Below the pieces are notes generated by a model. That model saw only the letters and a program-made list of their open reading frames with translations, was not told the origin of the DNA and did not search any database. The position numbers and the translations under genes are program-made. Below are positions 12,624-64,000 of a stretch of DNA of 64,000 bases, one piece after another (the first letter of the stretch is position 1; each line of letters opens with the position of its first letter). This DNA comes from Clostridia bacterium (GTDB lineage Bacteria > Bacillota > Clostridia > UMGS1883 > UMGS1540), in contig JAFSYJ010000016.1 of NCBI GenBank assembly GCA_017450025.1, positions 5,487 to 69,486 of the forward strand. Direction: 5' to 3'.

Positions 12624-12650
12624 AACACAAGACGGAAGGAACTGGTAATT

Positions 12651-34155: not shown

Positions 34156-34244
34156 TTGTTTTTTGTAAAGTCGCGTGATATTATCGCTTAATCTATAAAA
34201 GCATTTTATATCATATGCAGAATGCCTGGCAAAGGAGGAACATA

Positions 34245-50322: not shown

Positions 50323-50862
50323 ATGGCGATTGGTGAAAGAATAAGATATATACGAAAATTAAGAAAATTAACACAAACCAGGCTCGGAGTAAAACTCGGA
50401 TTTCCGGAAAGCTCTGCCGAGGTCAGAATAGCACAGTATGAAACGGGCACTCGAACGCCGAAAGAGAATGGTATAAAAGTGATAGCGGATATTCTTGAAG
50501 TATCGCCTCTTGCTTTGAAAGTGCCGGACATTGACAGCAATTTGGGCTTAATGCACACATTTTTCGCTTTGGAAGATATGTACGGATTGGAGATAAAAGC
50601 GGAAGATGATAAATTGATATTTCAATTCAAGGATGAACGGAAGCTTGACCCGTCATTTCATCAAATGCTTTTTGCATGGGCGAAGCAAGCAGAAAAACTC
50701 AAAAACGGTGAGGTAACAAAAGAGGAGTATGACAAGTGGAGATATAACTATCCAAAATATGATAACTCGCAAATATTTGCGGAAGTTCCCTCACAAAAAA
50801 TAACAGATTATTTAGAAAAACAAAACGGCGCAAAGGAGGATTTAAAAAATGGATGCAAATGA
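50323..50862 (+). CDS. XRE family helix-turn-helix transcriptional regulator
   Basis: IGERIRYIRKLRKLTQTRLGVKLGF...IAQYETGTRTPKENGIKVIADILEVSPLAL is a Cro/C1-type HTH. The ATG is at 50323. Confidence 0.8.
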   Translation: MAIGERIRYIRKLRKLTQTRLGVKLGFPESSAEVRIAQYETGTRTPKENGIKVIADILEVSPLALKVPDIDSNLGLMHTFFALEDMYGLEIKAEDDKLIFQFKDERKLDPSFHQMLFAWAKQAEKLKNGEVTKEEYDKWRYNYPKYDNSQIFAEVPSQKITDYLEKQNGAKEDLKNGCK

Positions 50863-51721
50863 TAAAATTCAGTTATTTGAAAATCAGCAAATACGTACAG
50901 CATGGGATGAAGAAAAAGAGGAATGGTATTTTTCTGTAGTTGATGTTTGTGGTGTGTTAACAGATAGTGCAGATTATAATACTGCAAGAAAATATTGGAA
51001 TAAGCTAAAACAAAGATTAAACGATGAGGGCAGCCAGTTGGTGACAAATTGTCACCAACTGAAAATGAAATCTCCAAAAGACGGAAAGCGTTATAAAACA
51101 GATGTTGCAACCACAGAACAGCTTTTACGAATCATACAGTCAATCCCGTCACCGAAAGCTGAGCCGTTTAAACTTTGGCTTGCGGAGGTCGGCAGAGAAC
51201 GAATCGAAGAAACGATAGATCCCGAACTCATTATTGAACGCGCCCTTGAAACATATTTGAAAAAAGGTTATTCACGCGAATGGATCAATCAACGGTTGCA
51301 GGCAATTCAAGTTCGTAAGGAGCTTACCGATGAATGGCAGGACAGAGGAATTCAAAAAGGAATCGAATACGCAATTCTTACAGACGAGATAACCAAAGCA
51401 TGGTCGGGCATGACAACAAGGCAATACAAAAATCTAAAAGGTTTAAAGGAAGAAAATCTTCGCGACAACATGAGCACAACTGAGATTATTCTTAATATGC
51501 TTGCGGAAACATCAACAAAAGATATTTCAAAGAAGGAAGAACCAAATGGACTCAGCGAAAGCAAAAAGGTTGCAAAGCGCGGAGGCAATGTTGCGAATAT
51601 TGCGAGGAAAGCACTGGAAGCCGAAACAGGCGAATCGGTAATCACATCTGAAAATGCAGCTACATTAAATTCGGTTGTAACAAATCTGATTGAAGGTGCA
51701 AAAAACGACAAAGATGAATAA
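50849..51721 (+). CDS. Bro-N domain protein with a DinD-like (DNA damage-inducible protein D family) C-terminal region
   Basis: FENQQIRTAWDEEKEEWYFSVVDVCGVL...PKAEPFKLWLAEVG fits the Bro-N pattern. The C-terminus (KNLKGLKEENLRDNMSTTEIILNMLAE...) resembles DinD. RBS GGAGG lies upstream. Confidence 0.75.
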   Translation: MDANDKIQLFENQQIRTAWDEEKEEWYFSVVDVCGVLTDSADYNTARKYWNKLKQRLNDEGSQLVTNCHQLKMKSPKDGKRYKTDVATTEQLLRIIQSIPSPKAEPFKLWLAEVGRERIEETIDPELIIERALETYLKKGYSREWINQRLQAIQVRKELTDEWQDRGIQKGIEYAILTDEITKAWSGMTTRQYKNLKGLKEENLRDNMSTTEIILNMLAETSTKDISKKEEPNGLSESKKVAKRGGNVANIARKALEAETGESVITSENAATLNSVVTNLIEGAKNDKDE

Positions 51722-51740
51722 TATATAAAGTTTAACTGAG

Positions 51741-51768
51741 AGACAGGACAAGGAGCCTGTCTTTTTTT
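51741..51768 (+). terminator. Rho-independent terminator after the Bro-N gene
   Basis: AGACAGG - loop - CCTGTCT followed by TTTTTTT. Confidence 0.75.
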
Positions 51769-52349: not shown

Positions 52350-52378
52350 TTGACTTTTGTAAACATTTGTAGTAAAAT
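52350..52378 (+). promoter_or_regulatory. Sigma-70-type promoter of the RHH-SPFH-TIR operon
   Basis: TTGACT (52350-52355), a 17 nt spacer, then TAAAAT (52373-52378), about 35 nt upstream of the RHH start codon. Confidence 0.55.
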
Positions 52379-52412
52379 ATAAAAGTAAAAGTATGTTTTC
52401 TGGGGTGAGGAT

Positions 52413-52601
52413 ATGGCGGAAGAAAAATTAATAATTGCTGCCAAAAAATATGGCGGCGAAAGTGCGGTAGTTTCTGCGCGTCTTCCTGTTGACCTGATTA
52501 AGCGTTTGGACGATATATGCGACATGACAGGAAGAACAAAAAATGAAGTTATTCAGATGTGTATAGAGTTCGCAGTAGAACGTATAGAAATTGAAAAGTA
52601 G
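52413..52601 (+). CDS. Ribbon-helix-helix (CopG/Arc/MetJ-type) DNA-binding protein
   Basis: 62 aa. SARLPVDLIKRLDDICDMTGRTKNEVIQMCIEFAV shows the beta-strand then helix-helix pattern typical of RHH repressors/antitoxins. Confidence 0.8.
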   Translation: MAEEKLIIAAKKYGGESAVVSARLPVDLIKRLDDICDMTGRTKNEVIQMCIEFAVERIEIEK

Positions 52602-52614
52602 CGGAGGTATTCAT

Positions 52615-53721
52615 ATGTTTAAATTAGCAGATGTAATCAAGTATGAAGGTGACAATTCAACTTTTGTGTGGAAACATCATTGTGAGGATTTTAATACAAC
52701 ATCTCAGTTAATAGTACATGAATCACAGGAAGCCGTGTTTTTTGCAAACGGTCAGGCTTTGGACTTGTTTGAGACGGGAAGGTATACGCTAACAACACAA
52801 AACATTCCGCTTATAAGAAATGTTATAAATATTCCTACGGGCGGAAAGACGCCTTTCCATTGTGAAGTTTATTTTGTAAATAAAACTCACCAAATGGCTA
52901 TTAAATGGGGTACGGACAGTCAGGTTCAATATATGGAACCAAAGTATCACTTCCCTTTGCAAATCGGATTGTCCGGAGAAATGATTTTATCGGTTGATGA
53001 TTCGAGAAAACTTCTTGTTTATATAGTCGGCACGGAACAAAAATTGACGCAAACAGCATTAGTACAAAAATTCCGTGCATTGCTAATGTCAAAAATTAAA
53101 CCATACATCGGAAAAACAATGCAGGAAGCATCGTATTCAATATTTGAAACCGATTCGCATATGGATGAATTATCTTCCGATTTACATAGAATGCTGATTC
53201 CGGATTTTAAAGCATACGGGCTTAAACTTGAAAACTTCTTTGTTACCAATATTGCAAAACCTGATGGAGAACCCGCATACGAAAAATTCAAAGATTTGCA
53301 CATTCGTCAGTATTCAGATGTTGCGGAAGCTCAGTTAAAACAACAAGTAAGCGTTATAGATGAAGAAACGGAAAAGAAACGCAGAATTATAGAGGCTGAA
53401 GGAATTGCCGAAAAAAGAAAAATTGAGGGTTATAGTTATGCCCAGGAAAGAGGCTTTGATGTTGCGGAAAAAGTTGCAGATAATGAAGGCGTGGGTAACT
53501 TTTCAAGTCTCGGCATCGGTCTCGGAATGATGGGCGGTGTTGCAGGAACTGTTGGAGGAATGACCGGAGAGGCAATAAAAAATACGGAAGGGCAAAAAAG
53601 TCCGGACAGTATGGAGGAGTTCAAACAAAAGCTCGAAAAACTGATGCTTATGAAGGAAATGGGCGCCTTGTCAGATGAAGAATTCAACGAACAGAAGAAA
53701 AGATTATTAGAAAGTATTTAA
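52615..53721 (+). CDS. SPFH (Band 7, YdjI-like / Band_7_1) domain protein with a Gly/Met-rich linker and a C-terminal SHOCT domain
   Basis: N-terminus MFKLADVIKYEGDNSTFVWKHHCEDFNTTSQLIVHESQEAVFFANGQ...GRYTLTTQNIP is typical of the Band_7_1 family. A coiled-coil follows. The C-terminus MEEFKQKLEKLMLMKEMGALSDEEFNEQKKRLLESI is SHOCT-like. RBS GGAGG lies upstream. Confidence 0.85.
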   Translation: MFKLADVIKYEGDNSTFVWKHHCEDFNTTSQLIVHESQEAVFFANGQALDLFETGRYTLTTQNIPLIRNVINIPTGGKTPFHCEVYFVNKTHQMAIKWGTDSQVQYMEPKYHFPLQIGLSGEMILSVDDSRKLLVYIVGTEQKLTQTALVQKFRALLMSKIKPYIGKTMQEASYSIFETDSHMDELSSDLHRMLIPDFKAYGLKLENFFVTNIAKPDGEPAYEKFKDLHIRQYSDVAEAQLKQQVSVIDEETEKKRRIIEAEGIAEKRKIEGYSYAQERGFDVAEKVADNEGVGNFSSLGIGLGMMGGVAGTVGGMTGEAIKNTEGQKSPDSMEEFKQKLEKLMLMKEMGALSDEEFNEQKKRLLESI

Positions 53722-53738
53722 CTTAGGAGGAATTGGTT

Positions 53739-55250
53739 ATGGGATTTACGAAAAATAAAGCATGGAGTATTGTTATATCACTATTAGCACTTATCCTTTT
53801 GCATGTTGTCGCATTTATTCTTCCCGTATACCACGGTATACATTTTTGGATGGGATACAGTTTTGCTGTTTTTGCAAATATAGTGCTGGTTGTAGCTGCT
53901 ATTATTACGCTTAATAAACCAAATATAAATAAAACATTCCTGGGGCTTCCTGCTTTGAGCGTGGCATGGATTTATTTTATTATTCAAACAGGATTATCAA
54001 TAAAGCAAATGACAGATTTTGATTTTCCGTATTTTGCGGGGATAATTATTAATTCAGCTTTAGCGACATTTGTTATTATTACTCTTATTTTAACAAATAT
54101 GGCAGTAAAAGAAATTGAAAAAGTCGAAGAAAAAACAGCCGAAAAAGTATTTTATATTAAAAATTTAAAAACTGATATTGAACTATTAGAAAGCGAAAAT
54201 TCAGAGGTTTTGTCAAAGCTTAAAGACCTGAAAGATACGGTTAGATTCAGTGATCCGATGAGCCATTCACAGCTTACCCCGCTGGAAAATAAAATCACCA
54301 ATAAGTTTAATATTCTCAAAGAAAACATCGACAATCCAAGCATTGCTTTAACGCTCTGCGATGAAATGCAGAAGCTGCTAGCGGAAAGGAACAAAAAGTG
54401 CAGATTGTTAAAAGGAGTGCCGGAGTCCACTCTGGAAAAAGACAATACGGGCATTAATATTTTATCTACCGCTTTGGCGGTGCTTAGTGTTGTGGCTATA
54501 TTCACACTCATACTGACATTTGTTATTATTCCAAACAACAAGTATAATACTGCGAACGCTTTATTTCAAAATGAAAATTATGAAGAGGCACTCTTTGCTT
54601 TTGAAAAGCTCGGCAACTATAAGGATAGCAAATTAAAAACAGACTTAATAAAAGAAAAATTATATGAAGAAAAGTATTTGCAAGCTGAAAATTGCTACAA
54701 GACGCAAAAGTATGTAGAAGCTATGCGCTTATACAGCGAGCTTGGAGATTATAAAAATTCAAAGGACAGAATTGAACAAATCTGCAATAAGTTTGCTCAG
54801 GGCGGAGAAATTTACTTTGGCGTGTATGAAGAAAATCCCGTTGCATGGAAAATTTTAAAAACAGAAAAAAGCAGAATGCTTTTAATCACGCAAAATCCTG
54901 TAGAAACACTTGCATTTAATGACGAACTTAAAAATATAACATATGAAACATCCTCTATAAGAAACTGGCTGAATGATGATTTTCTGACTGAATTTTCTGA
55001 TGATCAAAGAGGCAGAATCCTTAAGAGTGACGAAGGCATGAATGATGATATATTCCTTTTGACAGAAGAACAATATAATGAATATTCAAAAAATCTTGAC
55101 CTAACCACATATAGTGATTGGTGGCTGAGGACTAAAACCGATGCCGGAATGATGTATGTATCTGGAGAAAGCGGTGAAGTAAATACATATGGAGAAAGTG
55201 TCGTAAGAAATATGGGCGTTCGTCCGTGTGTTTGGATAAGCTTAAGATAG
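53739..55250 (+). CDS. Polytopic membrane protein: four N-terminal TM helices, coiled-coil, fifth TM, two GxYK(D/N)S helical motifs, C-terminal DUF6273-like domain
   Basis: Hydrophobic segments lie at the N-terminus and at INILSTALAVLSVVAIFTLILTFVII. The motifs are FEKLGNYKDSK and YSELGDYKNSK. The C-terminus W-KILK...SSIRNWLNDDFL...DIFLLTEEQ...DWWLRT...GVRPCVWISL fits the DUF6273 pattern. RBS AGGAGG lies 8 nt upstream of the ATG at 53739. Confidence 0.75.
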   Translation: MGFTKNKAWSIVISLLALILLHVVAFILPVYHGIHFWMGYSFAVFANIVLVVAAIITLNKPNINKTFLGLPALSVAWIYFIIQTGLSIKQMTDFDFPYFAGIIINSALATFVIITLILTNMAVKEIEKVEEKTAEKVFYIKNLKTDIELLESENSEVLSKLKDLKDTVRFSDPMSHSQLTPLENKITNKFNILKENIDNPSIALTLCDEMQKLLAERNKKCRLLKGVPESTLEKDNTGINILSTALAVLSVVAIFTLILTFVIIPNNKYNTANALFQNENYEEALFAFEKLGNYKDSKLKTDLIKEKLYEEKYLQAENCYKTQKYVEAMRLYSELGDYKNSKDRIEQICNKFAQGGEIYFGVYEENPVAWKILKTEKSRMLLITQNPVETLAFNDELKNITYETSSIRNWLNDDFLTEFSDDQRGRILKSDEGMNDDIFLLTEEQYNEYSKNLDLTTYSDWWLRTKTDAGMMYVSGESGEVNTYGESVVRNMGVRPCVWISLR

Positions 55251-55268
55251 AATGGAGGCACATATAAG

Positions 55269-56021
55269 GTGATATCCAAATGTAAAGTATGTGGCGGAAA
55301 TATTAATGCAAAAGAAGATGCAAAATATGTTATATGTGAATATTGCAGTACAACATATGAAACAGACAACGGCAAAATTGATATTAATGTAAGTTGTAAT
55401 GTTAATAATACTGCAAAAAAGAAATCATTGTTGCCTTTATTGATATGTTTGTTTTTGCTGGTGTTTGTCATTGTAGGGGGACTTATTGTTATGAGTCTTA
55501 TGAAGATTAACACCTCTTTGGAAAAACCGGAAGATAATGATGTATCCTATGTTTCGGAAATTTATGAAAAAAATTCGGAATTACAAAGAAACGAAAACAA
55601 AAATACCATTGAAGAAAAAAACAATAAACCTGAATTTGTTTATATTGAAAATGTCGAAGAACAAGTTAAACTGATACGCAAAAAATACTACAGCACACAA
55701 AACGACCTCGGAGCGCTCAATGTTACACAAATCGGCAAATATAAAATTTATAAAAATTCTGATGGTGATATTAAAAAGGTTGATTTTGCATTGAATTCTA
55801 ATGCATATGATGTTTGCTATTATTATGAAAATGGAGAATTGTATTTTGTTTTTGCTTTTGACGGAAAAAAGGAAAATAGATTTTATATTTATAAAAATCA
55901 GATTATAAGATGGATAAATGAAGCCGGTACTGTGTTTGATAATGAATATAACAACCCTGAATTGCAGAAGTGGCAAAAAATAATTTTCGATGAAGCAAAA
56001 CTTTTGAAGGAGAATATATGA
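55269..56021 (+). CDS. Zinc-ribbon single-pass membrane protein (no TIR) with an extracytoplasmic C-terminal domain
   Basis: The GTG start aligns with the paralog N-termini (MISKCKVCGG...ICEYCSTTY is a CxxC..CxxC ribbon). KKK precedes the TM segment LLPLLICLFLLVFVIVGGLIVMSL, giving an N-in topology. RBS GGAGG lies upstream. Confidence 0.7.
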   Translation: MISKCKVCGGNINAKEDAKYVICEYCSTTYETDNGKIDINVSCNVNNTAKKKSLLPLLICLFLLVFVIVGGLIVMSLMKINTSLEKPEDNDVSYVSEIYEKNSELQRNENKNTIEEKNNKPEFVYIENVEEQVKLIRKKYYSTQNDLGALNVTQIGKYKIYKNSDGDIKKVDFALNSNAYDVCYYYENGELYFVFAFDGKKENRFYIYKNQIIRWINEAGTVFDNEYNNPELQKWQKIIFDEAKLLKENI

Positions 56022-58057
56022 TATTTAAATGTAAAATCTGCGGTGGTAGTTTAGATGTACATATCGGAGAAAGAACGGCAGTATGTGAGTACTGTGGTGT
56101 GGAACAGACAATACCGAGCTTTATTGATATAAAAGCGCAGGAGATATATAATATAGCAAGCAATTATCTTGCGCACAATGAATTTGATAAAGCGGAAAAT
56201 CTGTATGCACAGATTCTAATTGACAACAAATCCGATGCGGACGCGTACTGGAATATTCTTATGTGCCGCTACGGTGTTACATATGTAAAAGACCCTGCAA
56301 GCGGAAAGTATATACCAACGTGCAACAGAACTTTATATGCCCCTATTTTCAATGACGAAAACTACAAAAACGCTATTAAGTATGCAGATGAAAAACAAAT
56401 GGCATTATTTGAAGCAAACGCAAAAATCATTGACGATATACAAAAGGGTATTCTTTCCGTTTCAAGCAAAGAAAAGCCGTTTGATATTTTCATATCGTAC
56501 AAGGAAACGGATGCGAACGGCGCAAGAACAAAGGACAGTATTGCGGCGCAGGATTTGTATGAGAAACTGACGGCAGAAGGTTACAAGGTATTCTTCTCAC
56601 GTATTACCCTTGAAGACAAAATTGGAACGGAGTATGAACCATACATCTATGCCGCCCTTGCTTCAAGCAAGGTAATGATAACCGTTTCATCATCAAGAGC
56701 AAATCTCGAATCGGTATGGGTAAAAAATGAGTGGTCAAGGTTTTTATCATTCATGGGAAAAGACAGCGGGAAAACACTTGTTCCGCTTTATTTTGATATG
56801 GACAAGTCTGACCTGCCGGATGATTTTGCACATTTCCCATCTTACGATATGAAAGTTGACGGTTTTGAACAAGATTTAATAAGGGGTATTAAAAAATTGA
56901 CACCTCTACCTGTCATGCTTTTGGAGAAACGGAAGAAAAGAAATAAGATATTAAAGCGTATAGGACTTGCCGGTGCAGCTTGCGCGGTTATCGGTGTTAT
57001 ATGCGCTATTCCGTGGTTTATGAAGCTGCCGCAATATAACGCCGCAATGCAGCTTTATTATGACAAGAACTACCCCAAAGCGACATGGGCATTTGCAGAT
57101 TTAGGAAGTTACAGAAATTCAGAGAAAATGAAGGAAAAGTGTGAGCTTAGCTGGAGGAAGAGTTTGGCGAATGTTGTAGCAACAAAATATGCTTCGTTAG
57201 AAGGCGATTCATACTATGTTTCACAGCAAGGCAGTATCGAAATTTTTGATTCAATTAACGGTTTCGACAGCAATGAAAATAAGAATTCAAATTTGCAGAC
57301 CGATGTAAAATATGTATCCATTGCTGACGGTGGACACACATCTGTTTATGCGCTCAGAGAAGACGGATTTGTTTCTAATTCTAAGGAAAACAACGATTTA
57401 CCGGATGATTGGAAAAACATTGTTCAGATTTCACCAAAGTTTTACAGTACTTCTGTGGCATTAACCAAAGAAGGTAAAATGCTATACGGAAACACACATA
57501 ATTCAAAGTTTTATTCAGGAAACGATGATTGGCTGACTGATGTTAGCACATGGAATAATATTGTTTCTTTCGAGTATGAGATATTGGACACCGAAGGTGG
57601 TATAGAATCTGCGGCTATTGTAGGAATAAAATCAGATGGATCGTTATGCGGCGTATATACAAGTAGTTTTAACAGTGCTTCAATTTCACAAGCTGTAAAA
57701 CAGTTTTCTGATGTGAAAAGCGTTGACATTGATCTTTATGACGGTATACGAATAACAGCTTTAACAAATCACGGCACATTACAAAAGTATGAGCATGACA
57801 GATTCAGCGAAGAAATAGCGGAAAACACTTCAGATATATTTATAGATTTTTATCCTGAAGATGCAATATATAAGCTTTCTAATCGCGGTGAATTGTTTGG
57901 CTGTACGGGGCATGTTTTAACAGAAGACATCGTTAAGTTATCGTCTGATTTTTGTATAAGTCGTTCAGGTAGCATATATAGAATTTTCAATAATGAAGTT
58001 CAAAAGTATTCCGAAAAAACAGTTGTATATGACGAATGGGTAGAAAGGTTGAATTAG
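56018..58057 (+). CDS. Type-A zinc-ribbon / helical / TIR-domain single-pass membrane protein with a repeat (propeller-like) ectodomain, copy A1
   Basis: C4 ribbon MIFKCKICGG...CEYCG. TIR_2-like domain FDIFISYKETDANGARTKDS...GYKVFFSRITLEDKIGTEYEPYIYAALASSKVMITVSSS..LESVWVKNEWSRFL. KRKKRNKILKR precedes the TM segment IGLAGAACAVIGVICAIPWF. The C-terminal region has about six repeats of the form W-x-(N/D)-I-V-x-(I/F) ... G-x-x-x-D-G. The start overlaps the upstream stop (ATGA). Confidence 0.85.
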   Translation: MIFKCKICGGSLDVHIGERTAVCEYCGVEQTIPSFIDIKAQEIYNIASNYLAHNEFDKAENLYAQILIDNKSDADAYWNILMCRYGVTYVKDPASGKYIPTCNRTLYAPIFNDENYKNAIKYADEKQMALFEANAKIIDDIQKGILSVSSKEKPFDIFISYKETDANGARTKDSIAAQDLYEKLTAEGYKVFFSRITLEDKIGTEYEPYIYAALASSKVMITVSSSRANLESVWVKNEWSRFLSFMGKDSGKTLVPLYFDMDKSDLPDDFAHFPSYDMKVDGFEQDLIRGIKKLTPLPVMLLEKRKKRNKILKRIGLAGAACAVIGVICAIPWFMKLPQYNAAMQLYYDKNYPKATWAFADLGSYRNSEKMKEKCELSWRKSLANVVATKYASLEGDSYYVSQQGSIEIFDSINGFDSNENKNSNLQTDVKYVSIADGGHTSVYALREDGFVSNSKENNDLPDDWKNIVQISPKFYSTSVALTKEGKMLYGNTHNSKFYSGNDDWLTDVSTWNNIVSFEYEILDTEGGIESAAIVGIKSDGSLCGVYTSSFNSASISQAVKQFSDVKSVDIDLYDGIRITALTNHGTLQKYEHDRFSEEIAENTSDIFIDFYPEDAIYKLSNRGELFGCTGHVLTEDIVKLSSDFCISRSGSIYRIFNNEVQKYSEKTVVYDEWVERLN

Positions 58058-58060
58058 ATT

Positions 58061-59644
58061 ATGAAATGCTTAATATGCGGCGGCGTTTTAAAATATGAAA
58101 ACGGTTTATACATATGCTTGAACTGTGGAGTGAAACAAAAGATTTCTTCTTTTTTTGAGGACACAGAGGTTTTTATATGTTATGAGGAAAGCGATGAGCA
58201 AGGCAGAAGAACGAAAGACAGTATTATAGCACAAGACATATATAATAAACTGCAAAACGCCAACATAAGTTCTTTTTTTCAGAGAATATCTGCCGCCGAT
58301 TTGGTTGGTGAAAATATGGAACTTGCAGTTCAAACCGCAATTACATGCGCTAAAGCAATTATTTTATGTGCAAGCTCAAAAGAGAATTTCTCAAAACTAC
58401 TTTATAAATACAAAAATGAATTTACAAATAAAAAAGTAATTCCTGTTTATACTCTTTTAAACGCATCGGATATTCCGAAAGAAATAAGCAGATTTCAAGC
58501 TGTAAACTATGATAATGTGGGTTCATCAACGGATTTAATAAAGAGCCTTCTTGTTTTTTTAAATAAAAACAGCGAAATAGATGTTAATAGTTTTAAAGAC
58601 AAGCTAATAAAAAAAAGAAAGCGTTTACTAATTTCATTTTTTGCCTTGTTTATTGCTATTGCTGCTTTAATATCATATATAGTATTTGGCACACCGTATA
58701 TATTAAAAGCCAAAAAATACAGTTATGCCGAAAAACTATTTGATAACGCCAATTATACAGAAGCTGTCGATATTCTTACACAACTTTCCGATTATAAGAA
58801 TTCACGAAATATGCTAAAAAGCATTTATGATCTATACGAAGGGTATTATTATGATGAATCATCTGATTCGACACTTCATTTAGTTATTGAGAATGATTCC
58901 CGTGCAAATATAGAATTTGAAAGAAAATATCCCGATAATACCGTAATGAAGTTTTCTGAAAAAGGAGAGATACACGGAAAACAAATGTCATTTAACTTTA
59001 CCGACAACTTTGGGCAAGACGGAGTAGCCGACATTCAAATAGAAAACACCTCATTAAAATTAAAAATAAAATCAAAAGAAAGCTTGGAGTTGGCTTTTGA
59101 TTTAAATTCAAAATCAGACGCTCCGTTGAAGGAAAAAATATCAAAGGACACTTTGCTTTCATGGCTAAAAACAAGAACAACAATCAGTGATATAAAGGCA
59201 CTCGGTTATGAAATAGAATATGTAACTTCATGGGGATCAGAAGAAGGAACTAACAGATTTTATAAGATATCTGATACGGATATCCGGTTTCTAACAAGCG
59301 CATACGATCCGACAAAGGAAGATTTATGGTCAGCTCCAATTCAAACAGATGTATATAATAATCCTTTTATTATGGCAATTGAAGCAAAAGCAGAACTGAT
59401 GTGCCCGGAAAGAATAGGTCAAAAAGATGACAGTTACATAGATGATGGTATTAAGTATTATCCAAACGGAGTGCCGTATAATGGCTCTGCTCAAACTGAA
59501 ATAAATCATGATACCCCTGTTTTGGTAGCATCTGATAAGCTGTTAAGCAGAAATGAACTTCTTTTACCGGAAAAATGGTATTATACAGATGATAATTCTG
59601 CGGAAACGGAAAATGATCAAAGCAGTTTCAGTTTATATGATTAG
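58061..59644 (+). CDS. Type-B zinc-ribbon / divergent TIR-like single-pass membrane protein with an unrelated ectodomain, copy B1
   Basis: Ribbon MKCLICGG...CLNCG. The TIR-like N-half EVFICYEESDEQGRRTKDSIIAQDIYNKL...FFQRISA is homologous to the type-A TIR. KKRKR precedes the TM segment LLISFFALFIAIAALISYIVFG. The juxtamembrane motif is LTQLSDYKNSR. Confidence 0.7.
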   Translation: MKCLICGGVLKYENGLYICLNCGVKQKISSFFEDTEVFICYEESDEQGRRTKDSIIAQDIYNKLQNANISSFFQRISAADLVGENMELAVQTAITCAKAIILCASSKENFSKLLYKYKNEFTNKKVIPVYTLLNASDIPKEISRFQAVNYDNVGSSTDLIKSLLVFLNKNSEIDVNSFKDKLIKKRKRLLISFFALFIAIAALISYIVFGTPYILKAKKYSYAEKLFDNANYTEAVDILTQLSDYKNSRNMLKSIYDLYEGYYYDESSDSTLHLVIENDSRANIEFERKYPDNTVMKFSEKGEIHGKQMSFNFTDNFGQDGVADIQIENTSLKLKIKSKESLELAFDLNSKSDAPLKEKISKDTLLSWLKTRTTISDIKALGYEIEYVTSWGSEEGTNRFYKISDTDIRFLTSAYDPTKEDLWSAPIQTDVYNNPFIMAIEAKAELMCPERIGQKDDSYIDDGIKYYPNGVPYNGSAQTEINHDTPVLVASDKLLSRNELLLPEKWYYTDDNSAETENDQSSFSLYD

Positions 59645-59656
59645 AGGTAAAAACAA

Positions 59657-61633
59657 ATGATATTCAAATGTAAAATATGCGGTGGCAGTTTAGATGTAAA
59701 TATAGGCGAAAGAACTGCCATTTGTGAATACTGCGGTGTGGAGCAGACAATTCCGAGCTTTATTGATATTAAAGCACAGGAAATTTATAATATTGCAAAT
59801 AATTATCTTGCTCATAATGAGTTCGATAAGGCGGAAAATCTGTATGCACAAATACTAATTGACAATAAATCCGATGCGGATGCGTATTGGAATATCCTTA
59901 TGTGCCGATATGGTGTTACATATGTAAAAGACCCTGCAACCGAGAAGTATATTCCCACTTGTAATAGGACACTCTATGCGCCTATCTTTAATGACGAGAA
60001 TTACAAAAATGCCATAAAATATGCTGATGAAAAACAAAGGGTATTATTTGAAGCAAACGCCAGAATCATTGACGATATTCAAAAAGGTATTCTTTCGGTA
60101 TCACGAAAAGAAAAGCCGTTTGATATATTTATCTCGTACAAAGAAACAGATGCAAACGGTGCAAGAACAAAGGATAGTATTACAGCGCAGGATTTATATG
60201 AAAAGCTGACAGCCGAAGGTTACAAAGTATTTTTCTCACGTATTACACTTGAAGATAAAATTGGAACAGAATATGAACCGTATATATATGCCGCTTTAGC
60301 TTCAAGCAAGGTAATGATTACCGTTTCATCTTCAAAAGAAAATCTTGAATCGGTTTGGGTAAAAAATGAGTGGTCAAGATTTTTATCATTCATGGGAAAA
60401 GACAGCGAGAAAACACTTGTTCCACTTTACATTGATATGGACAAATCTGACATGCCCGATGATTTTGTACATATGCCGTCATACGATATGAAAACTGACG
60501 GCTTTGAACAGGATTTAATCAGAGGTATCAAAAAATTGATACCTCTGCCTGTAATGCTTTTGGAAAGACGAAAAAAGCGCAATAAAATTTTAAAAAGAGT
60601 CGGCATAGCCGCTGCCGTTTGTGCTGTTATATGTGTTATATGCGCTATTCCTTGGTTTATGAAACTGCCCGACTATAACGCTGCAATGCAGCTTTACTAT
60701 GACAAAAACTACCCCGAAGCAACCTGGGCATTTGCTGATTTGGGGCAATACAGAAATTCGGATAAAATGAAGGAAAAGTGCGAGCTTAGTTGGAGAAAAA
60801 GCTTGGCAAGTATTGTCGCTGTACCGTATGAATTGTCTTATTCGGACAATATTTATTATATTACTGATTTGGGTTCGGTTAAACAATATAATAATAACGG
60901 AAAAATCGACAATTCTGTTAACGATCTCTCGATAAACGAGCACGGAAGAATAGCATCGCTGGCATGGGGGTATGAGCCACATGCGCTATATGAGGACGGA
61001 ACGGCAATGTTAGGACAAAGCGAAGAAGAATGGAAAGATATTGTTCAAATAGTTGGCCCTCAACCCATTGGATTGCGGTCAGACGGCAGAGTTATTTATT
61101 CAAAGACCAAGCTGTCCACTGCTACCCAGAATGAAGATTGGTTAAAGGATACAGAAAATTGGACTAACATAGTTTCATTGGAGTATTACGGTCAGCCCGG
61201 CGGCGCTCAATTCTTAATAGGAGTTACGAGCAACGGTACGGTTTGCAAAGTTCAAACAGAACACGCTGGGGAGTTATTTGTTGATGATTTTAAAAATGTT
61301 AAAACATGCTTAATGACTGATTTTAATATTTGCGCCATAACATATGACGATAAGATAATCTGTGAAAATAACGGTTCTAATATAGAATATAAAACTGATA
61401 AAATAAAGGCTGCAGAAATACACGGAGCATTTTATGACAAGTCAAAACACTATTTAGAATTGTTGAAAAACGGTGAATTGTATATAGACGACAAATATGT
61501 TTTAGGTGACATATGTTATTTAAAAAACGGCTATGCCTTATCAAAAACAGGAGTATTATACAGTTATGATTTATATACGAACACATTTACAGAGTTTAAG
61601 AAAAATGTTTTGGTAAATGACGAATGGAAATAG
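59657..61633 (+). CDS. Type-A zinc-ribbon / helical / TIR-domain single-pass membrane protein, copy A2 (ectodomain strongly diverged from A1)
   Basis: The first ~384 residues are collinear with A1, with about 29 substitutions and no indels by hand count. TIR motif ...VWVKNEWSRFL is intact. After SWRKSLA the sequence is only weakly alignable to A1 through WKDIVQI / WTNIVSLEY-type repeat motifs. Confidence 0.85.
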   Translation: MIFKCKICGGSLDVNIGERTAICEYCGVEQTIPSFIDIKAQEIYNIANNYLAHNEFDKAENLYAQILIDNKSDADAYWNILMCRYGVTYVKDPATEKYIPTCNRTLYAPIFNDENYKNAIKYADEKQRVLFEANARIIDDIQKGILSVSRKEKPFDIFISYKETDANGARTKDSITAQDLYEKLTAEGYKVFFSRITLEDKIGTEYEPYIYAALASSKVMITVSSSKENLESVWVKNEWSRFLSFMGKDSEKTLVPLYIDMDKSDMPDDFVHMPSYDMKTDGFEQDLIRGIKKLIPLPVMLLERRKKRNKILKRVGIAAAVCAVICVICAIPWFMKLPDYNAAMQLYYDKNYPEATWAFADLGQYRNSDKMKEKCELSWRKSLASIVAVPYELSYSDNIYYITDLGSVKQYNNNGKIDNSVNDLSINEHGRIASLAWGYEPHALYEDGTAMLGQSEEEWKDIVQIVGPQPIGLRSDGRVIYSKTKLSTATQNEDWLKDTENWTNIVSLEYYGQPGGAQFLIGVTSNGTVCKVQTEHAGELFVDDFKNVKTCLMTDFNICAITYDDKIICENNGSNIEYKTDKIKAAEIHGAFYDKSKHYLELLKNGELYIDDKYVLGDICYLKNGYALSKTGVLYSYDLYTNTFTEFKKNVLVNDEWK

Positions 61634-61648
61634 GAGGTGCAAATTACT

Positions 61649-63562
61649 ATGAATTGTAAAAATTGCGGAGGCAAGTTATCAGCCGGTGAAAACGGATTCC
61701 AATGCGAAAGCTGTCAAAGCAGATTTGAATTTGCCGATTTTTATGAAAATGAGGAGGTCTATATTTCGTATATTGAAACGGATGATTCCGGCCGCAGAAC
61801 AAAGGACAGTGTTATTGCTCAAGAAATATACCGCAAATTAGAAGGGACAAAAATAAACACCTTTTTTCAGCGTATTTCCGCCGGCAACGCCACGGACGAC
61901 CTTGTGCAAAGAATAAGTAGCATCGCAGAGGAAAAATCAAAAATTGTTTTAATTGTCGCTACATCGGCGGAAAATTTCATAAAGCTCTGGAATAAGCATC
62001 AAAGTTCGGCATCAACAAAAACAGTTCTTCCCGTATTCTCCGATATGTCGGCATCGGCATTGCCGCAAGAAATCAAGAACACGCAAGCGCTTAATTATGA
62101 TGCTATCGGTTCGGACAAGGACTTAATAAAAAACATACTTCAAATATTAGGCCGTGAAGGTGATAAAGACCTTTTTGAAAACCAAAAATCTTTAAACAAG
62201 CGAAAGAAGAAAACGGCAATTATGGTACTTCTGATTGCGTTGATTGGTATTTTAGCATTATCAATTACATGTAAACCGGGTGTTTTAAATAAATTTAAAA
62301 GCAATTCTAACGAAGTAATATATGAAAAAGCAGTCAAATTTGATGAAAGCAAAGACTATGTTCAGGCTATTAAATCATTTTGCAGTATCCCAGGATACAA
62401 AGATTCTGATACAATGCTTATGGATATTTATAAGTTATATAACGGAGTGTATACAGACGAAAACACTAACCTTACAGTAAGGCTTGATATAAGCAGTATT
62501 TATTCTGCAAACGTCAAAATAATAACGGACTTGAATAAAAGCTCTATGTCTGTATTAAACGAAAACGCCGGTATTAATGAAAACTTAATACACAGCAGTT
62601 ATACAGATACTAACGGCGTTTCAGGCAACTTTGAGATAGTTCTCGAAAACGATGGTATACAAGTTGTCCTGAATAATGTTGATGTTTTTATTCCTTTTGA
62701 GAATAAGACCGAAAAAGACTTGGATTTGGAAATAAACCATGAGCAAATACTCACGTGGTTGGATGGAAAAACTGCTGTAAATAAACTTGTTGCTTTAGGC
62801 TATGATATAGAAATTCAAGATCAGAACACATATTCAATAAAAAACACCGATATATCAATTGTTGGTAATTCAGAAGGAATAGAAAGCATTACCGGACCGG
62901 CAGATATTATATGTCCCGAATATGCCGGTCGCGAAGCCACACCATACTATACAGACGAATACTTGTACTACCCAAGCGAATCTTTATACTGGAATAAGCC
63001 CGACACAATCGGAACTATCGCAAGCGACTCTACCGTAACTGTAGCAAGCAAGCTTTCTTTGGGTGTAGACCGGTGGGATCAAGAAATAAATACAATCAAG
63101 GACTCTCTCCGCAAGGACGAGGATGATAACGGAAGTGATTCAGATTTTGTTTTCTTGCCAATTGGCGATTTGAAATTTAGGATGACCGCCCGGGAAGTTC
63201 AGCGCATTTTAGGCGACCCGGAGAAAAAATCGGAAGAACTTGGTCAGGGGGCAACCGGTACACCTTTGCAAAACTGGGAATATCCCTCATTAGGCATTTC
63301 ACTTTCATTCGTGCGCAATCAAAACGAACAAACAGTTTCAATTATCAGGATAACAGCGCCATGCAGTTTTACAACACCTCAGGGTATAAAAATCGGTAGC
63401 AGTCGCTCGGAAGTAATAAATGCATACAAAGGAAAAATAGAGTTTGAAGAAACGGCACAAAGTGCCGACACGATTATAGTTGGAAGTGTATACGGAGGGA
63501 CTATATTTACTATTGACGGCGATACCGTATCGCAAATATTTGTGGGTGCAGGTGCAGAGTAA
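61649..63562 (+). CDS. Type-B zinc-ribbon / divergent TIR-like single-pass membrane protein, copy B2 (longer ectodomain)
   Basis: Ribbon MNCKNCGG...CESC. TIR-like EVYISYIETDDSGRRTKDSVIAQEIYRKL...FFQRISA. KRKKK precedes the TM segment TAIMVLLIALIGILALSI. The motif is IPGYKDSD. The ATG at 61649 has AGGAGG 11 nt upstream; the track start at 61637 (GTG) lies inside that RBS. It carries about 110 extra C-terminal residues relative to B1. Confidence 0.7.
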   Translation: MNCKNCGGKLSAGENGFQCESCQSRFEFADFYENEEVYISYIETDDSGRRTKDSVIAQEIYRKLEGTKINTFFQRISAGNATDDLVQRISSIAEEKSKIVLIVATSAENFIKLWNKHQSSASTKTVLPVFSDMSASALPQEIKNTQALNYDAIGSDKDLIKNILQILGREGDKDLFENQKSLNKRKKKTAIMVLLIALIGILALSITCKPGVLNKFKSNSNEVIYEKAVKFDESKDYVQAIKSFCSIPGYKDSDTMLMDIYKLYNGVYTDENTNLTVRLDISSIYSANVKIITDLNKSSMSVLNENAGINENLIHSSYTDTNGVSGNFEIVLENDGIQVVLNNVDVFIPFENKTEKDLDLEINHEQILTWLDGKTAVNKLVALGYDIEIQDQNTYSIKNTDISIVGNSEGIESITGPADIICPEYAGREATPYYTDEYLYYPSESLYWNKPDTIGTIASDSTVTVASKLSLGVDRWDQEINTIKDSLRKDEDDNGSDSDFVFLPIGDLKFRMTAREVQRILGDPEKKSEELGQGATGTPLQNWEYPSLGISLSFVRNQNEQTVSIIRITAPCSFTTPQGIKIGSSRSEVINAYKGKIEFEETAQSADTIIVGSVYGGTIFTIDGDTVSQIFVGAGAE

Positions 63563-63763
63563 TACATTTTTTTAAGTACTGATTACTGTTCTTAAATCGC
63601 TGACAAACTCAGTCTGCTGCAAGTAAAAAAATGGCAAAAGGGGATAGACGCGATTTTTCAACTTTTATGTTGTTACGTCGAGCACTTGCTTGGTAAGGAA
63701 GGAAACACTTTAGGGACGGAGCGGATTTTGTTATAAAAAGTATTGTTTTTAACGTACAAAAAA

Positions 63764-63796
63764 CGTCCCGTCCAAAAATGGATTAGCTTAAGATAG
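63764..63796 (+). pseudogene. Remnant of the 3' end of a second DUF6273-type gene
   Basis: Reads ...RPVQKWISLR*, matching the C-terminus GVRPCVWISLR* of the 53739..55250 gene. The following spacer (AGCTTAAGATAGAA...GGAGGCACA) also matches the 55238-55265 junction. Confidence 0.45.
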
Positions 63797-63815
63797 AAAT
63801 AAGCGGAGGCACAAT

Positions 63816-63884
63816 ATGTTATTCAAATGCAAAATCTGCGGCGGCAGTTTAGACGTACTTATTGAAGAAAGAACAGCGGTATGA
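63816..63884 (+). pseudogene. Truncated 5' fragment of a third type-A zinc-ribbon/TIR gene
   Basis: GGAGG RBS, then MLFKCKICGGSLDVLIEERTAV followed by TGA. This is nearly identical to the A1/A2 N-termini but loses the second CxxC. A possible out-of-frame echo (EAVYTNLWQDYF versus AQEIYNIASNYL) follows. Confidence 0.6.
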
Positions 63885-64000
63885 GGCAGTATATACAAAT
63901 CTGTGGCAAGATTATTTCTAACCGTTGCTCATTGCCCCTGGGCTGGACAAGTTGCTACCGTTAATCAAATGATTGAATCGAATGTGAGGAATACACAATG

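Follow-up and report, generated by a model that had tools for sequence, protein, structure and literature searches.

The window, a stretch of 64,000 nucleotides from a Clostridia bacterium, contains eight closely packed genes (g1 to g8) on the plus strand between positions 52413 and 63562 (Table 1). All open reading frames were present at the positions first given, and every intergenic gap comprises at most 18 nt; thus, the eight-gene array with the contents named in the earlier note was confirmed. For g2, the start was placed at ATG 52615, with GGAGG 7 nt upstream; the mechanically derived open reading frame begins at TTG 52591. The site upstream of g1 had been regarded as a good promoter. 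It is a real match to the consensus (10 of 12 positions), but it is not distinctive, as promoter-like sites occurred 48 times in the surrounding AT-rich stretch and 46.9 were expected from shuffled sequences, which is no enrichment. The Bro-N gene preceding the cassette is closed by a terminator-like hairpin and matches the PADLOC candidate PDC-S13 (E 4e-137). Downstream of g8, a remnant of a third type A gene accounts for the end at position 63884 that was first assigned to the locus. The same 22 codons occur in the independent contig L078 and are followed there by unrelated genes.

Table 1. Positions of the cassette genes and of neighbouring features in the window.
Feature	Position	Strand	Description
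Large serine recombinase	48318-49835	-	Flank of the cassette
Terminator-like hairpin	51738-51765		End of the Bro-N gene
Promoter-like site	52350-52378	+	TTGACT, 17-nt spacer, TAAAAT; within the 690-nt gap upstream of g1
g1	52413-52601	+	62-aa ribbon-helix-helix (RHH) protein; RHH_1 E 2.7e-5, above cut-off
g2 (S)	52615-53721	+	SPFH protein, Band_7_1 family
g3 (M-DUF6273)	53733 or 53739 to 55250	+	Five-TM protein with DUF6273
g4	55269-56021	+	250-aa Zn-ribbon and single-TM protein, without TIR
g5 (type A1)	56018-58057	+	Zn-ribbon-TIR-TM-ectodomain; ATGA overlap with g4
Glu238 codon of g5	56729-56731	+	WxxxE motif
g6 (type B1)	58061-59644	+	Zn-ribbon-TIR-TM-ectodomain; begins 3 nt past g5
g7 (type A2)	59657-61633	+	Architecture as g5, propeller ectodomain differs
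Glu238 codon of g7	60368-60370	+	WxxxE motif
g8 (type B2)	61637-63562 (alternative ATG start 61649)	+	Architecture as g6; C-terminal region longer and different
Remnant of third type A gene	63817-63885	+	22 codons (MLFKCKICGGSLDVLIEERTAV), then stop; direct sequence reading

The conserved core of the cassette consists of the genes for the SPFH protein (S), a 4TM/coiled-coil protein (M) and the two types of TIR proteins (A and B). Of the close loci, 22 extend at least 3 kb upstream, and in 19 of these S-M immediately precedes the first TIR gene. S was found immediately before M 34 times, at a median gap of 14 nt, and the median gap between M and A is 23 nt. The genes for A and B were invariably paired and translationally coupled (median gap 1 nt), and B follows A in 29 of 30 close loci. 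This order is also present in independent metagenome contigs, and dozens of species-level Clostridia genomes show the linkage beside integrases, TnpV and resolvases; one copy is carried by Gallibacter intestinalis DSM 108706. Since the identical gene order occurs in many unrelated genomes, the arrangement is far beyond chance, and conserved linkage of the cassette genes holds across species. Two type A peptide motifs served as seeds for the survey of loci, which is therefore biased towards close relatives.

From about 46.7 kb onward, the GC content of the window drops from 0.45-0.50 to 0.32-0.39, and a broken tyrosine recombinase is also found in the flank of the cassette. The 113 nearest flanking ORFs in the survey include 12 tyrosine integrases, 6 TnpV, 4 resolvases and 1 MobA. 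Cassettes of this kind are widespread and horizontally mobile among gut Clostridia, and the window carries one copy. Defence-type neighbours of the cassette loci include AbiEi/AbiEii, SoFic, PD-T4-3 and PDC-S04; known defence genes make up only a modest share of the flanks, a share not set against a matched background. In one further locus (L004), a gene of kinase-dCTP-deaminase-like type and a methyltransferase gene are among the neighbours. Viral contigs are nearly devoid of the family (3 loci), and a search of isolated phages and plasmids found it almost absent from both sets; hence, there is no direct connection to phages.

The type A proteins g5 and g7 showed clear TIR_2 matches in Pfam (49.1 and 49.4 bits; cut-off 28 bits). 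In g5, a Zn ribbon (residues 1-31) is followed by TPR-like helices with a beta-hairpin (38-150), the TIR domain with the WxxxE motif (157-285), a basic patch, a TM helix (317-335), a conserved helical hairpin (337-382) and a beta-propeller ectodomain (383-679). W234 and E238 are kept in 24 of 24 close and in 46 of 47 divergent type A homologues, and this invariant glutamate, of the type found in NADases, points to catalysis. In the AF2 model of type A, the TIR region was of low confidence (pLDDT 45-68) and matched no solved TIR structure in Foldseek; profile searches against PDB sequences yielded a weak best TIR match (E 0.39, to the TIR domain of a TLR). The C-terminal beta-propeller of g5 was modelled confidently and matched the periplasmic sensor BT4663 (4.7e-7), BamB and WD40 structures in Foldseek.

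The type B proteins g6 and g8 remained below the Pfam cut-off for TIR_2 (22.4 and 17.9 bits), and g8 aligns with the type B family. g6 comprises a Zn ribbon (1-27), a TIR-fold domain without the WxxxE glutamate (33-170) and a TM helix (190-208; 194-212 in g8), beyond which helical hairpins, an eight-stranded beta-barrel and an alpha/beta domain are predicted to lie outside. HHalign showed types A and B to be homologous across TIR, TM helix and hairpin (probability 100%, E 3e-40). In this alignment, Glu238 of type A falls on a non-conserved Lys or a gap, and both W234 and E238 are absent from type B. The AF2 model of g6 (pLDDT 79.8) matched the TIR domains of MAL, Hydra TRR-2 and SPARTA in Foldseek, with target-normalised TM-scores of 0.66-0.70 for MAL and TRR-2; its barrel matched designed or FABP-like beta-barrels. 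Type B thus combines a TIR fold with loss of the WxxxE motif. The regions proposed to be TIR domains are indeed TIR folds, in type A by Pfam TIR_2 and WxxxE, in type B by HHalign and the structural matches. All four TIR proteins are present, but they are not equivalent: since only type A looks catalytic by its motif, the four effectors proposed before become two pairs of an active and an inactive type.

Each of the four TIR proteins possesses a single hydrophobic helix behind the TIR domain, with 6-8 Lys/Arg in the preceding 15 residues and 2-3 after it (8 and 2 in g5). Judged solely by hydropathy and charge bias, the TIR domains of A and B are predicted to be cytoplasmic and the C-terminal domains to lie outside. 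The mean identity is 80% in the TIR domain versus 38% in the ectodomain. g5 and g7 share 93-94% of their 300 cytoplasmic residues and 26% of the ectodomain; their nucleotide identity of about 85% falls to about 50% at nt ~1170, a sharp breakpoint just after the juxtamembrane hairpin. In the first 380 codons, 123 synonymous versus 29 non-synonymous codon differences were counted. Likewise, the identity of g6 and g8 drops from 44% in the TIR-like domain to 26% in the ectodomain. Clustering at 50% identity gave 3,697 clusters that share the Zn-ribbon-TIR head (295 residues), and the full proteins range from 467 to 2374 aa. A conserved, putatively cytoplasmic part in combination with divergent ectodomains is the pattern of receptor-like evolution. 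The earlier note had described the layout as an inverted analogue of Toll-like receptors. This analogy is strengthened by wider relatives, in which the TM helix is followed by a BspA-type LRR domain, an RCC1 propeller or a C-type-lectin-like DUF6273 domain. Across the family, the modules behind the TM helix are of binding type: propeller, RCC1, BspA LRR, DUF6273, SH3_3 and YARHG.

Beside the TIR proteins, the cassette encodes four partners. g1, which also showed weak RelB/BrnA antitoxin-like matches, is probably the autoregulator of the cassette; in other loci, an RHH gene is located directly before 8 of 34 SPFH genes (median gap 2 nt). g2 (Band_7_1, Pfam E 2.2e-38) is flotillin-like; it contains a coiled coil and a Gly-rich segment of weak hydrophobicity, and it ends in a SHOCT-like pair of helices (SHOCT 21.4 bits, under the Pfam cut-off of 27 bits). 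Hydropathy analysis revealed no TM helix above threshold (weak peak at residues 297-315), and by this measure g2 is a soluble SPFH protein. g3 possesses five hydrophobic segments according to its hydropathy: four N-terminal TM helices are followed by a coiled coil, the fifth TM helix, two TPR-like 'LGxYKDS' hairpins and the C-terminal DUF6273 (residues 383-503, Pfam E 9.5e-14). The coiled coil is predicted to be cytoplasmic and DUF6273, described as C-type-lectin-like and as a DGR target (PMC10743442), to lie outside the cell. In other loci, DUF6273 is often missing: the 4TM and coiled-coil module also stands alone (216-237 aa), and shorter forms of the protein likewise lack the domain. M homologues with 22-27% identity are still co-located with Band_7_1 and TIR_2 genes. 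g4, with a C4 ribbon (Cys 5, 8, 23, 26) and a TM helix at residues 57-75, had no significant match in Pfam, PADLOC, NCBIfam or PDB, and in other loci it matched only the Zn ribbon of type A proteins. It is also present in L078, which is near-identical to the window, and is accessory. All proposed partners are therefore encoded here, but the scarcity of the RHH gene, the DUF6273-less forms of M and the ribbon-only matches of g4 show that these three do not define the cassette.

No model or description of the cassette was found in PADLOC v2, NCBIfam 2026 or the searchable literature, and the absence of a matching named system holds to this extent. The cassette is conserved and undescribed. Its SPFH partner set is less novel than proposed, since it is partly prefigured by pspA-ydjGHI of B. 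subtilis. There, the Band_7_1 protein YdjI reaches the membrane only with YdjH and the Zn-ribbon membrane protein YdjG (PMC8581546, PMC9239133, PMC11237479), and the SPFH protein of the ydj operon is a Band-7 protein with a C-terminal Zn ribbon (PMC11237479). Similarly, proteins with N-terminal Zn ribbons and TM helices are encoded beside the SPFH gene of the cassette, and SPFH proteins of divergent cassette loci are fused to Zn ribbons. In contrast to pspA-ydjGHI, neither the eight products nor the 113 nearest flanking ORFs included PspA or any other Psp component.

The cassette looks like a surface-sensing bacterial immune receptor. We see about an even chance that it is a TIR NADase conflict system borne by mobile elements and triggered from the envelope. 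M and the Zn-ribbon proteins would tether the SPFH oligomer to the cytoplasmic side of the membrane, much as YdjH and YdjG do with YdjI. At rest, the oligomer may corral A:B heterodimers, in which the inactive TIR domain of B would block self-association of the TIR domain of A. The trigger might be envelope damage or the binding of a foreign surface ligand by the ectodomains; the most plausible ligand is a phage particle or its receptor-binding protein. Either event would rearrange the complex, and the type A TIR domains would assemble and hydrolyse NAD+, so that the cell is arrested or dies ahead of the replication of the invader. As no conserved separate effector gene was found with the cassette, direct depletion of NAD+ is likelier than a diffusible signal. 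As a counterpoint to the NADase reading, TIR domains can also serve as non-catalytic scaffolds. Tandem A-B pairs with different ectodomains would broaden the range of recognition. The combination of SPFH, Zn-ribbon and TM partners is otherwise tied to the handling of envelope stress, which is a counterpoint to a role in immunity.

It is unlikely that the cassette is instead a module for envelope stress or membrane maintenance, in which the SPFH protein and its membrane partners form a repair or surveillance complex and the TIR domains signal or act as scaffolds, without any anti-phage role. Such a module would fit the Band_7_1 protein with its SHOCT-like tail, the SPFH-Zn ribbon fusions and the YdjG-like Zn-ribbon membrane proteins, and also the SH3_3 and YARHG domains found on some type B proteins and divergent type A relatives. 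However, Psp components are missing from the products and flanks named above, and a patchy cassette riding integrative elements is unlike housekeeping stress systems. Furthermore, the invariant WxxxE glutamate suggests catalysis, and extreme diversity of ectodomains together with tandem arrays of paralogues is unexpected if the constant envelope of the cell itself is monitored.

The constant cytoplasmic head with hypervariable tails is the pattern of polymorphic recognition systems. The ectodomains could bind the surfaces of neighbouring cells or host glycans, and contact with non-kin would lead to TIR-triggered growth arrest, death or a signal, as in allorecognition or contact sensing. The ectodomain types of this family are also typical of adhesins; BspA-type LRR, RCC1, C-type-lectin-like DUF6273 and SH3_3 are common in those of gut Firmicutes, and in two loci (L005 and L006) a gene for an SLH-domain wall protein is inserted between M and A. 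Nevertheless, a receptor for cell-cell recognition or interbacterial conflict appears improbable, because neither linked genes for toxin delivery or secretion nor a conserved immunity-gene-like small ORF adjoining the cassette were found, and Abi and other candidates for phage defence occur among its neighbours.

The constant association with integrases, TnpV and resolvases could also indicate selfish cargo of the mobile elements, that is, an exclusion or addiction module with the RHH protein as antitoxin-type repressor and the type A TIR protein as toxin, which would block the entry of competing elements or penalise loss of the island. The weak RelB/BrnA-like similarity of the first gene product is in line with this, and the dead TIR paralogue coupled to the active one could be a built-in inhibitor. 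This role is quite improbable, since an RHH gene was found before only 8 of 34 SPFH genes, and large diversified ectodomains, an SPFH scaffold and arrays of paralogues would be superfluous for a simple addiction module.

That gut bacteria with TIR-domain proteins use them here as secreted, host-directed virulence factors of the TcpB/TcpC type, interfering with animal TLR signalling, is hardly credible, because the cassette has no linked secretion system, the TIR domain lies N-terminally behind a cytoplasmic-type C4 Zn ribbon without a signal peptide, and the basic stop-transfer patch and TM helix that follow it should keep it in the bacterial cytoplasm.

The earlier note had proposed a TIR locus of eight genes, and this was confirmed: between positions 52413 and 63562 of the window, eight ORFs (g1 to g8) lie on the + strand with spacings of at most 18 nt and one ATGA overlap, their domains are recognized by Pfam, and they represent a family that is large and apparently undescribed. 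The profile score of g2 exceeds the cut-off of the SPFH/Band_7_1 family (PF13421) and places it there; its preferred start is the ATG at 52615, which is preceded by GGAGG, in agreement with the annotation (368 aa) of the near-identical independent contig L078. Gene g8 has a candidate GTG start. The promoter suggested at 52350-52378 fits the consensus fairly well and is suitably placed, but such matches were not enriched over background in the promoter scan. The window cassette consists of two pairs of a type A gene (g5, g7) and a type B gene (g6, g8), followed by the remnant of a third type A gene. Downstream of this remnant in L078 lie two unrelated genes (203 and 397 aa) without a Pfam or PADLOC match.

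Features of the cassette and of the low-GC island in which it lies (window positions)
Feature	Position	Strand	Matches and remarks
Broken tyrosine recombinase, C-terminus (…HNLRHLFARTYY…STRIY…)	46949-47101, 47107-47367	+	Interrupted by a stop; left edge of the low-GC island
ATPase-like protein, 292 aa	47439-48317	-	N-terminal part weakly similar to HamA/LmuA (E about 1e-3 to 2e-4)
Large serine recombinase	48318-49835	-	Resolvase, Recombinase and Zn_ribbon_recom; directly coupled to the ATPase-like gene
Bro-N gene	50849-51721	+	Immediately upstream of the cassette; full-length match to PADLOC single-gene candidate PDC-S13 (E 4.3e-137)
g1		+	Pfam: RHH_1
g2		+	Pfam: Band_7_1 (E 2e-38; 132.5 bits vs 24-bit cut-off; residues 22-218); SHOCT below threshold
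g3		+	Pfam: DUF6273 at the C-terminal end
g5, g7 (type A)		+	Pfam: TIR_2 (PF13676), 49.1 and 49.4 bits vs 28-bit curated cut-off
g6, g8 (type B)		+	Pfam: TIR_2, 22.4 and 17.9 bits, below the cut-off
Remnant of a third type A gene, 22 codons	63817-63885	+	Same base for base in the independent contig L078 (12596-12664)

Hydropathy analysis revealed five hydrophobic segments in g3 and none in g2. In each of the proteins encoded by g5 to g8, the TIR domain is followed by a single helix; 6-8 Lys/Arg occur in the 15 residues preceding this helix and 2-3 after it. According to the positive-inside rule, this bias predicts a cytoplasmic Zn ribbon and TIR domain and extracytoplasmic C-terminal domains. 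Sequence searches of the PDB with g2, g3 and g4 gave no significant match.

Three homologues (51-66% identity) from metagenome assemblies all showed the order Band_7_1 protein, membrane protein, type A, type B, and their loci adjoin integrases, TnpV, resolvases or transposases. A survey with one genome per species returned 62 loci (30 close, 32 more distant), nearly all from Clostridia (Oscillospiraceae, Ruminococcaceae, Lachnospiraceae, Acutalibacteraceae); among them were the cultured Gallibacter intestinalis DSM 108706 (L024, with a minimal S-M-A-B copy at 7341-13836) and two contigs of a Victivallales MAG. When the six-frame ORFs of all loci were searched with pieces of the window proteins, type B was found to follow type A in 29 of the 30 close loci, and the genes of the SPFH protein (S, g2 in the window) and of the membrane protein (M, g3) lay directly upstream in 19 of the 22 with sufficient upstream sequence. 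The median gaps are 1 nt between A and B (34 pairs), 14 nt between S and M and 23 nt between M and A. An RHH gene precedes S in 8 of 34 cases, and g4, which encodes a Zn-ribbon membrane protein without a TIR domain, matched only the Zn ribbon of type A genes in other loci. From the conserved linkage, the optional RHH gene and the restricted matches of g4 it follows that the core consists of S, M, A and B. Linkage across genomes, named in the earlier note as a check, was thus found as a conserved S-M-A-B order in independent loci; the linked set is real, but the proposed system of eight genes is reduced to a core of four.

This linkage extends to distant relatives. S and M are retained in about half of those distant loci that have enough flanking sequence, the remainder being solo Zn-ribbon-TIR membrane proteins. 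Even M homologues with no more than 22-27% identity are flanked by Band_7_1 and TIR_2 genes, and the Band_7_1 family adjoins TIR genes in L001-L009, L072-L074 and other loci. An extra conserved small gene beside the cassette, encoding an immunity protein or effector, was sought and not found, nor did the flanks of 37 loci hold any further conserved gene. In two loci (L005, 6462-8093; L006, 8218-9849), a 543-aa SLH-domain protein, i.e. a cell-wall-anchored protein, is inserted between the M-DUF6273 and type A genes, an arrangement that hints that the cassette can take up additional extracytoplasmic partners. Solo family members were also detected outside the Firmicutes, on contigs binned to the Victivallales MAG (L057, 9989-13591; L060, 581-2917), and in L057 the surrounding 7-10 kb contain neither an SPFH gene nor an M gene. 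In L059, L061, L062, L063 and L065, a conserved peptide of 45 aa that contains six cysteines (MKHIRTINKANLKESAKKGGCGKCQASCQSACKTSCTVANQKCEK) is encoded just upstream of the solo TIR gene. It is similar to radical-SAM peptide precursors of the SCIFF class and is probably an unrelated neighbour.

All four of the proteins previously described as TIR proteins are indeed TIR-related, but they fall into two classes, type A with the WxxxE motif and type B without it. In an alignment of 24 type A homologues, the Zn ribbon, the TPR-like module, the TIR domain, the TM helix and the extracytoplasmic helical hairpin were strongly conserved. W234 and E238 of the motif are invariant in all 24 and in 46 of 47 more distant relatives, and TIR_2 was likewise matched by 46 of the 47 divergent type A relatives. 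Type A thus possesses the conserved WxxxE glutamate of catalytic (NADase-type) TIR domains, which is the residue used by SARM1 and the bacterial TIR NADases; judged from its sequence, type A carries a catalytic-type TIR domain and would act as an NADase. In type B this position is occupied by a non-conserved lysine or a gap. Both classes share the motif YxExDxxGRRTKDSxIAQ, and their homology spans the TIR domain, the TM helix and the hairpin (HHalign probability 100%, E 3e-40).

The TIR fold, a further check named beforehand, is supported for both classes, as type A scores above the TIR_2 cut-off, and type B is homologous to type A and yielded a model that matches solved TIR structures. The AlphaFold model of type B (pLDDT 79.8 overall, 80-90 in the TIR domain) shows the flavodoxin-like TIR fold and matched the MAL filament (5uzb), TIRAP, Hydra TRR-2 and the SPARTA TIR with a probability of 1.00, with target-normalised TM-scores of 0.66-0.70 for MAL, TIRAP and TRR-2. 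Beyond the membrane, the model predicts an eight-stranded beta-barrel and then an alpha/beta domain. Foldseek searches of viral models with type B gave only weak nucleoside-deoxyribosyltransferase-like matches. In the type A model the C-terminal beta-propeller is confident and the TIR region poorly resolved, so that the fold of the latter is taken from homology. For the same reason Foldseek returned only the propeller, the best match being the periplasmic sensor domain of BT4663, a hybrid two-component system, followed by BamB and WD40 proteins. Profile searches of the PDB with the type A queries A1 and A4 hit propeller and TPR designs only and no solved TIR structure.

To our knowledge, the characterised bacterial TIR systems (Thoeris, CBASS, Pycsar effectors, SPARTA, Avs-type) all detect intracellular events. 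The cassette combines a catalytic-type TIR domain inside the cell and a fast-evolving binding domain as the predicted outer part with an inactive TIR partner and an SPFH scaffold, and it may be a TIR-based conflict system. We infer that the SPFH protein and M would hold A:B heterodimers in a membrane complex, in which the dead TIR domain of B may restrain the active one of A. Binding of a ligand to the ectodomain, or envelope damage, would release the self-assembly of the type A TIR domains, which would then hydrolyse NAD+ and bring about growth arrest. Gene anatomy, conservation, A-B pairing and mobility are observed, whereas the topology, the heterodimer, the catalysis, the trigger and the outcome are proposed. 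We regard the chances of this reading, conflict or defence by a membrane complex whose type A NAD+ hydrolysis is triggered at the envelope, as evenly balanced, and the interpretation given in the earlier note is partly supported overall, having withstood three of the four tests that it named for its refutation. If the mechanism is right, attackers would be detected at the bacterial surface, SPFH proteins would gain a defined immune role, and an independently assembled analogue of the Toll-like receptor architecture would exist. The family occurs chiefly in Clostridia of the gut and rumen, in which phage defence is, as far as we know, poorly explored. Since a cultured carrier exists (at least G. 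intestinalis DSM 108706), the hypothesis is directly testable.

The predicted outer domains are the most variable part of the type A proteins, whose mean pairwise identity falls from 80% in the TIR domain to 38% in the ectodomain. Between g5 and g7, the cytoplasmic part is 93-94% identical and the outside part 26%; at the DNA level, the identity is approximately 85% up to nt ~1170 and approximately 50% thereafter, and the first 380 codons differ by 123 synonymous and 29 non-synonymous codons. Identity and codon pattern indicate that g5 and g7 are paralogues of long standing, that strong purifying selection acts on the head, and that the ectodomains were exchanged or diversified. An exhaustive search of 1.84 billion cluster representatives revealed 3,697 clusters (50% identity) that contain residues 2-295 at E 1e-30 or better, with full lengths of 467-2374 aa. 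In divergent relatives, the TM helix is followed by DUF6273, RCC1 propellers, BspA-type LRR, SH3_3, YARHG or several more TM helices. A helical hairpin with the motif LGxYKDS just outside the membrane is common to g3, type A and type B; in type A it is as conserved as the cytoplasmic part, and the hairpin may therefore be an interaction surface.

DUF6273 has been described as a C-type-lectin-like domain and as a target of diversity-generating retroelements in phage receptor-binding proteins (PMC10743442). In a divergent cassette, a reverse transcriptase gene (RVT_1, 402 aa) lies between the TIR and SPFH genes (L072, 4344-5552; L073, 3666-4874). A template/variable repeat pair was sought in both loci and only internal RCC1 repeats were found; therefore, this enzyme probably does not belong to a diversity-generating retroelement.

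A cassette with such diversified ectodomains might also serve cell-cell recognition, a role that we consider unlikely. For the defence reading, a more far-reaching version is put forward tentatively: this very large and fast-diversifying family may comprise genuine immune receptors of the prokaryotic cell surface, which would read the cell's exterior through interchangeable ectodomains (propeller, LRR, lectin-like or SH3), signal to a catalytic TIR domain and be organised by an SPFH microdomain. If this is true, outside-in pattern recognition before entry would be part of bacterial immunity, and bacteria would possess an inverted version of the receptor-plus-TIR logic known from Toll-like receptors.

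Like animal Toll-like/IL-1 receptors, the proteins are single-pass with a cytoplasmic TIR domain and a ligand-binding repeat domain predicted outside. The orientation is opposite, however, with the TIR domain N-terminal and the variable domain C-terminal, and the type I topology of Toll-like receptors (N-terminal LRR ectodomain, C-terminal TIR) does not occur among the window proteins. These also carry an additional Zn ribbon and TPR-like module, and their propeller and beta-barrel ectodomains are not homologous to those of Toll-like receptors, whose TIR domains are scaffolds without NADase activity. LRR ectodomains occur only in distant relatives such as L057, which encodes a Zn ribbon, TPR and TIR domains, a TM helix (590-608) and BspA-type LRR repeats; this order reverses that in which a Toll-like receptor carries its set of domains. 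The inverted layout that had been claimed therefore holds for the domain order and, in some relatives, the LRR, but does not extend to family membership. The resemblance is one of shared design, and most likely reflects an independent assembly of common parts.

A match to an already named system, also listed beforehand as a check, was found neither in the defence models searched (PADLOC v2.0.0, NCBIfam 20.0), where none of g1 to g8 gave a full-length component match, nor in the searchable literature. Full-text searches retrieved no paper that links SPFH, Band_7_1, SHOCT or DUF6273 with TIR domains. Only partial matches to TIR domains occurred (PDC-S66, ThsB, Aga TIR, ThcB4), all far below family level. 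In PADLOC v2.0.0, g1, g2, g3 and g6 were unmatched and g4 and g8 gave chance-level matches only (E 0.04-0.07). The best PADLOC match of type A was PDC-S66 (E 1.9e-7), confined to the TIR domain (profile positions 125-248 of 282); the TM helix and the ectodomain of the 658-679 aa type A proteins lie beyond the reach of this 282-position profile.

Weak matches of type A to Thoeris-related models were obtained with ThsB (PADLOC, E 4.5e-4 to 1.9e-3) and ThcB4 of type III (NCBIfam, 27 bits vs a 220-bit cut-off). Thoeris, including types II and III, consists of ThsB sensors and a ThsA effector and shares with type A a TIR domain with the catalytic glutamate. Its loci often hold several divergent adjacent TIR genes, which are thought to widen recognition. 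In contrast to Thoeris, the TIR proteins of the cassette are anchored in the membrane and bear Zn ribbons as well as large domains that are predicted to lie outside, an active TIR is paired with an inactive one, and an SPFH protein and a 4TM partner are regular neighbours. A ThsA-type effector (SIR2/SLOG or Macro-TM) was not matched among the eight products by PADLOC or NCBIfam models, and a Thoeris variant was rejected because ThsA is missing. By analogy, Thoeris is the nearest precedent for the effector logic. Kiwa and Zorya are membrane-seated defence complexes thought to respond to envelope events during phage attack. Neither complex has a TIR domain as its effector, an SPFH partner or diversified surface domains, and none of their PADLOC models was matched by the cassette products.

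For the scaffold, the nearest functional precedent, again by analogy, is the pspA-ydjGHI operon of B. subtilis, in which the soluble Band_7_1 SPFH protein YdjI needs the Zn-ribbon protein YdjG and YdjH for membrane localisation (PMC8581546, PMC9239133, PMC11237479). Compared with the described domains of this operon, the cassette likewise combines a Band_7_1 protein with two membrane proteins, one of which has an N-terminal Zn ribbon. The earlier note had placed the partner set outside the TIR systems that it listed; no named system matches it, but its SPFH part has this precedent. The two differ in gene order, in M, which is without a Pfam match and is not a TPM-domain protein like YdjH, and in the TIR domains and variable ectodomains borne by the Zn-ribbon proteins of the cassette. 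A PspA/IM30 gene was absent both from the eight products and from the leading families in the 113 closest flanking ORFs. An envelope-stress role of the cassette was weighed as well and appears improbable; pspA-ydjGHI is a chromosomal member of the sigma-W regulon, whereas the cassette is mobile and patchily distributed. In divergent cassettes, the SPFH proteins (L074, 979-2853; L072, 5610-7385) comprise about 600 aa and themselves carry Zn ribbons (double zinc ribbon; repeated CxxC…CPxCG), which echoes the Band-7 and Zn-ribbon fusion reported for the ydj operon (PMC11237479).

The cassette lies in a low-GC stretch (0.32-0.39 vs 0.45-0.50) that begins near 46.7 kb and holds a broken tyrosine recombinase, a large serine recombinase, an HTH gene and a Bro-N gene. 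With the broken recombinase at its left edge, this island seems to be pieced together from mobile elements, some decayed and some intact. In 36 loci, the 113 ORFs that flank the cassette most closely include 12 tyrosine integrases, six TnpV, four resolvases and one MobA, and their PADLOC matches include an AbiEi/AbiEii pair, SoFic, PD-T4-3, PDC-S04 and PDC-S48. A kinase-dCTP-deaminase-like gene and a methyltransferase were detected near the cassette of L004. Integrases and PADLOC matches together indicate that the cassette is cargo of integrative elements, sometimes among defence genes. For such a cargo, a role in exclusion or addiction that serves the element itself was also considered and is held to be very unlikely, and a host-directed secreted TIR effector was rejected because the topology is wrong.

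Isolated phages and plasmids gave no match (megablast with the whole locus, tblastn with the type A head), and a mainly phage-borne origin was rejected, as a scan of IMG/VR yielded three loci only. Rfam and tRNA scans of the window revealed neither a riboswitch nor a tRNA attachment site. PDC-S04 genes of the Bro-N type flank two other cassette loci. Elsewhere in the window, a 2094-aa ORF (34215-40499, + strand) begins where a second low-GC stretch (~32-35 kb) ends; its sole Pfam match is a sub-threshold CarboxypepD_reg, and it probably encodes a large surface protein.
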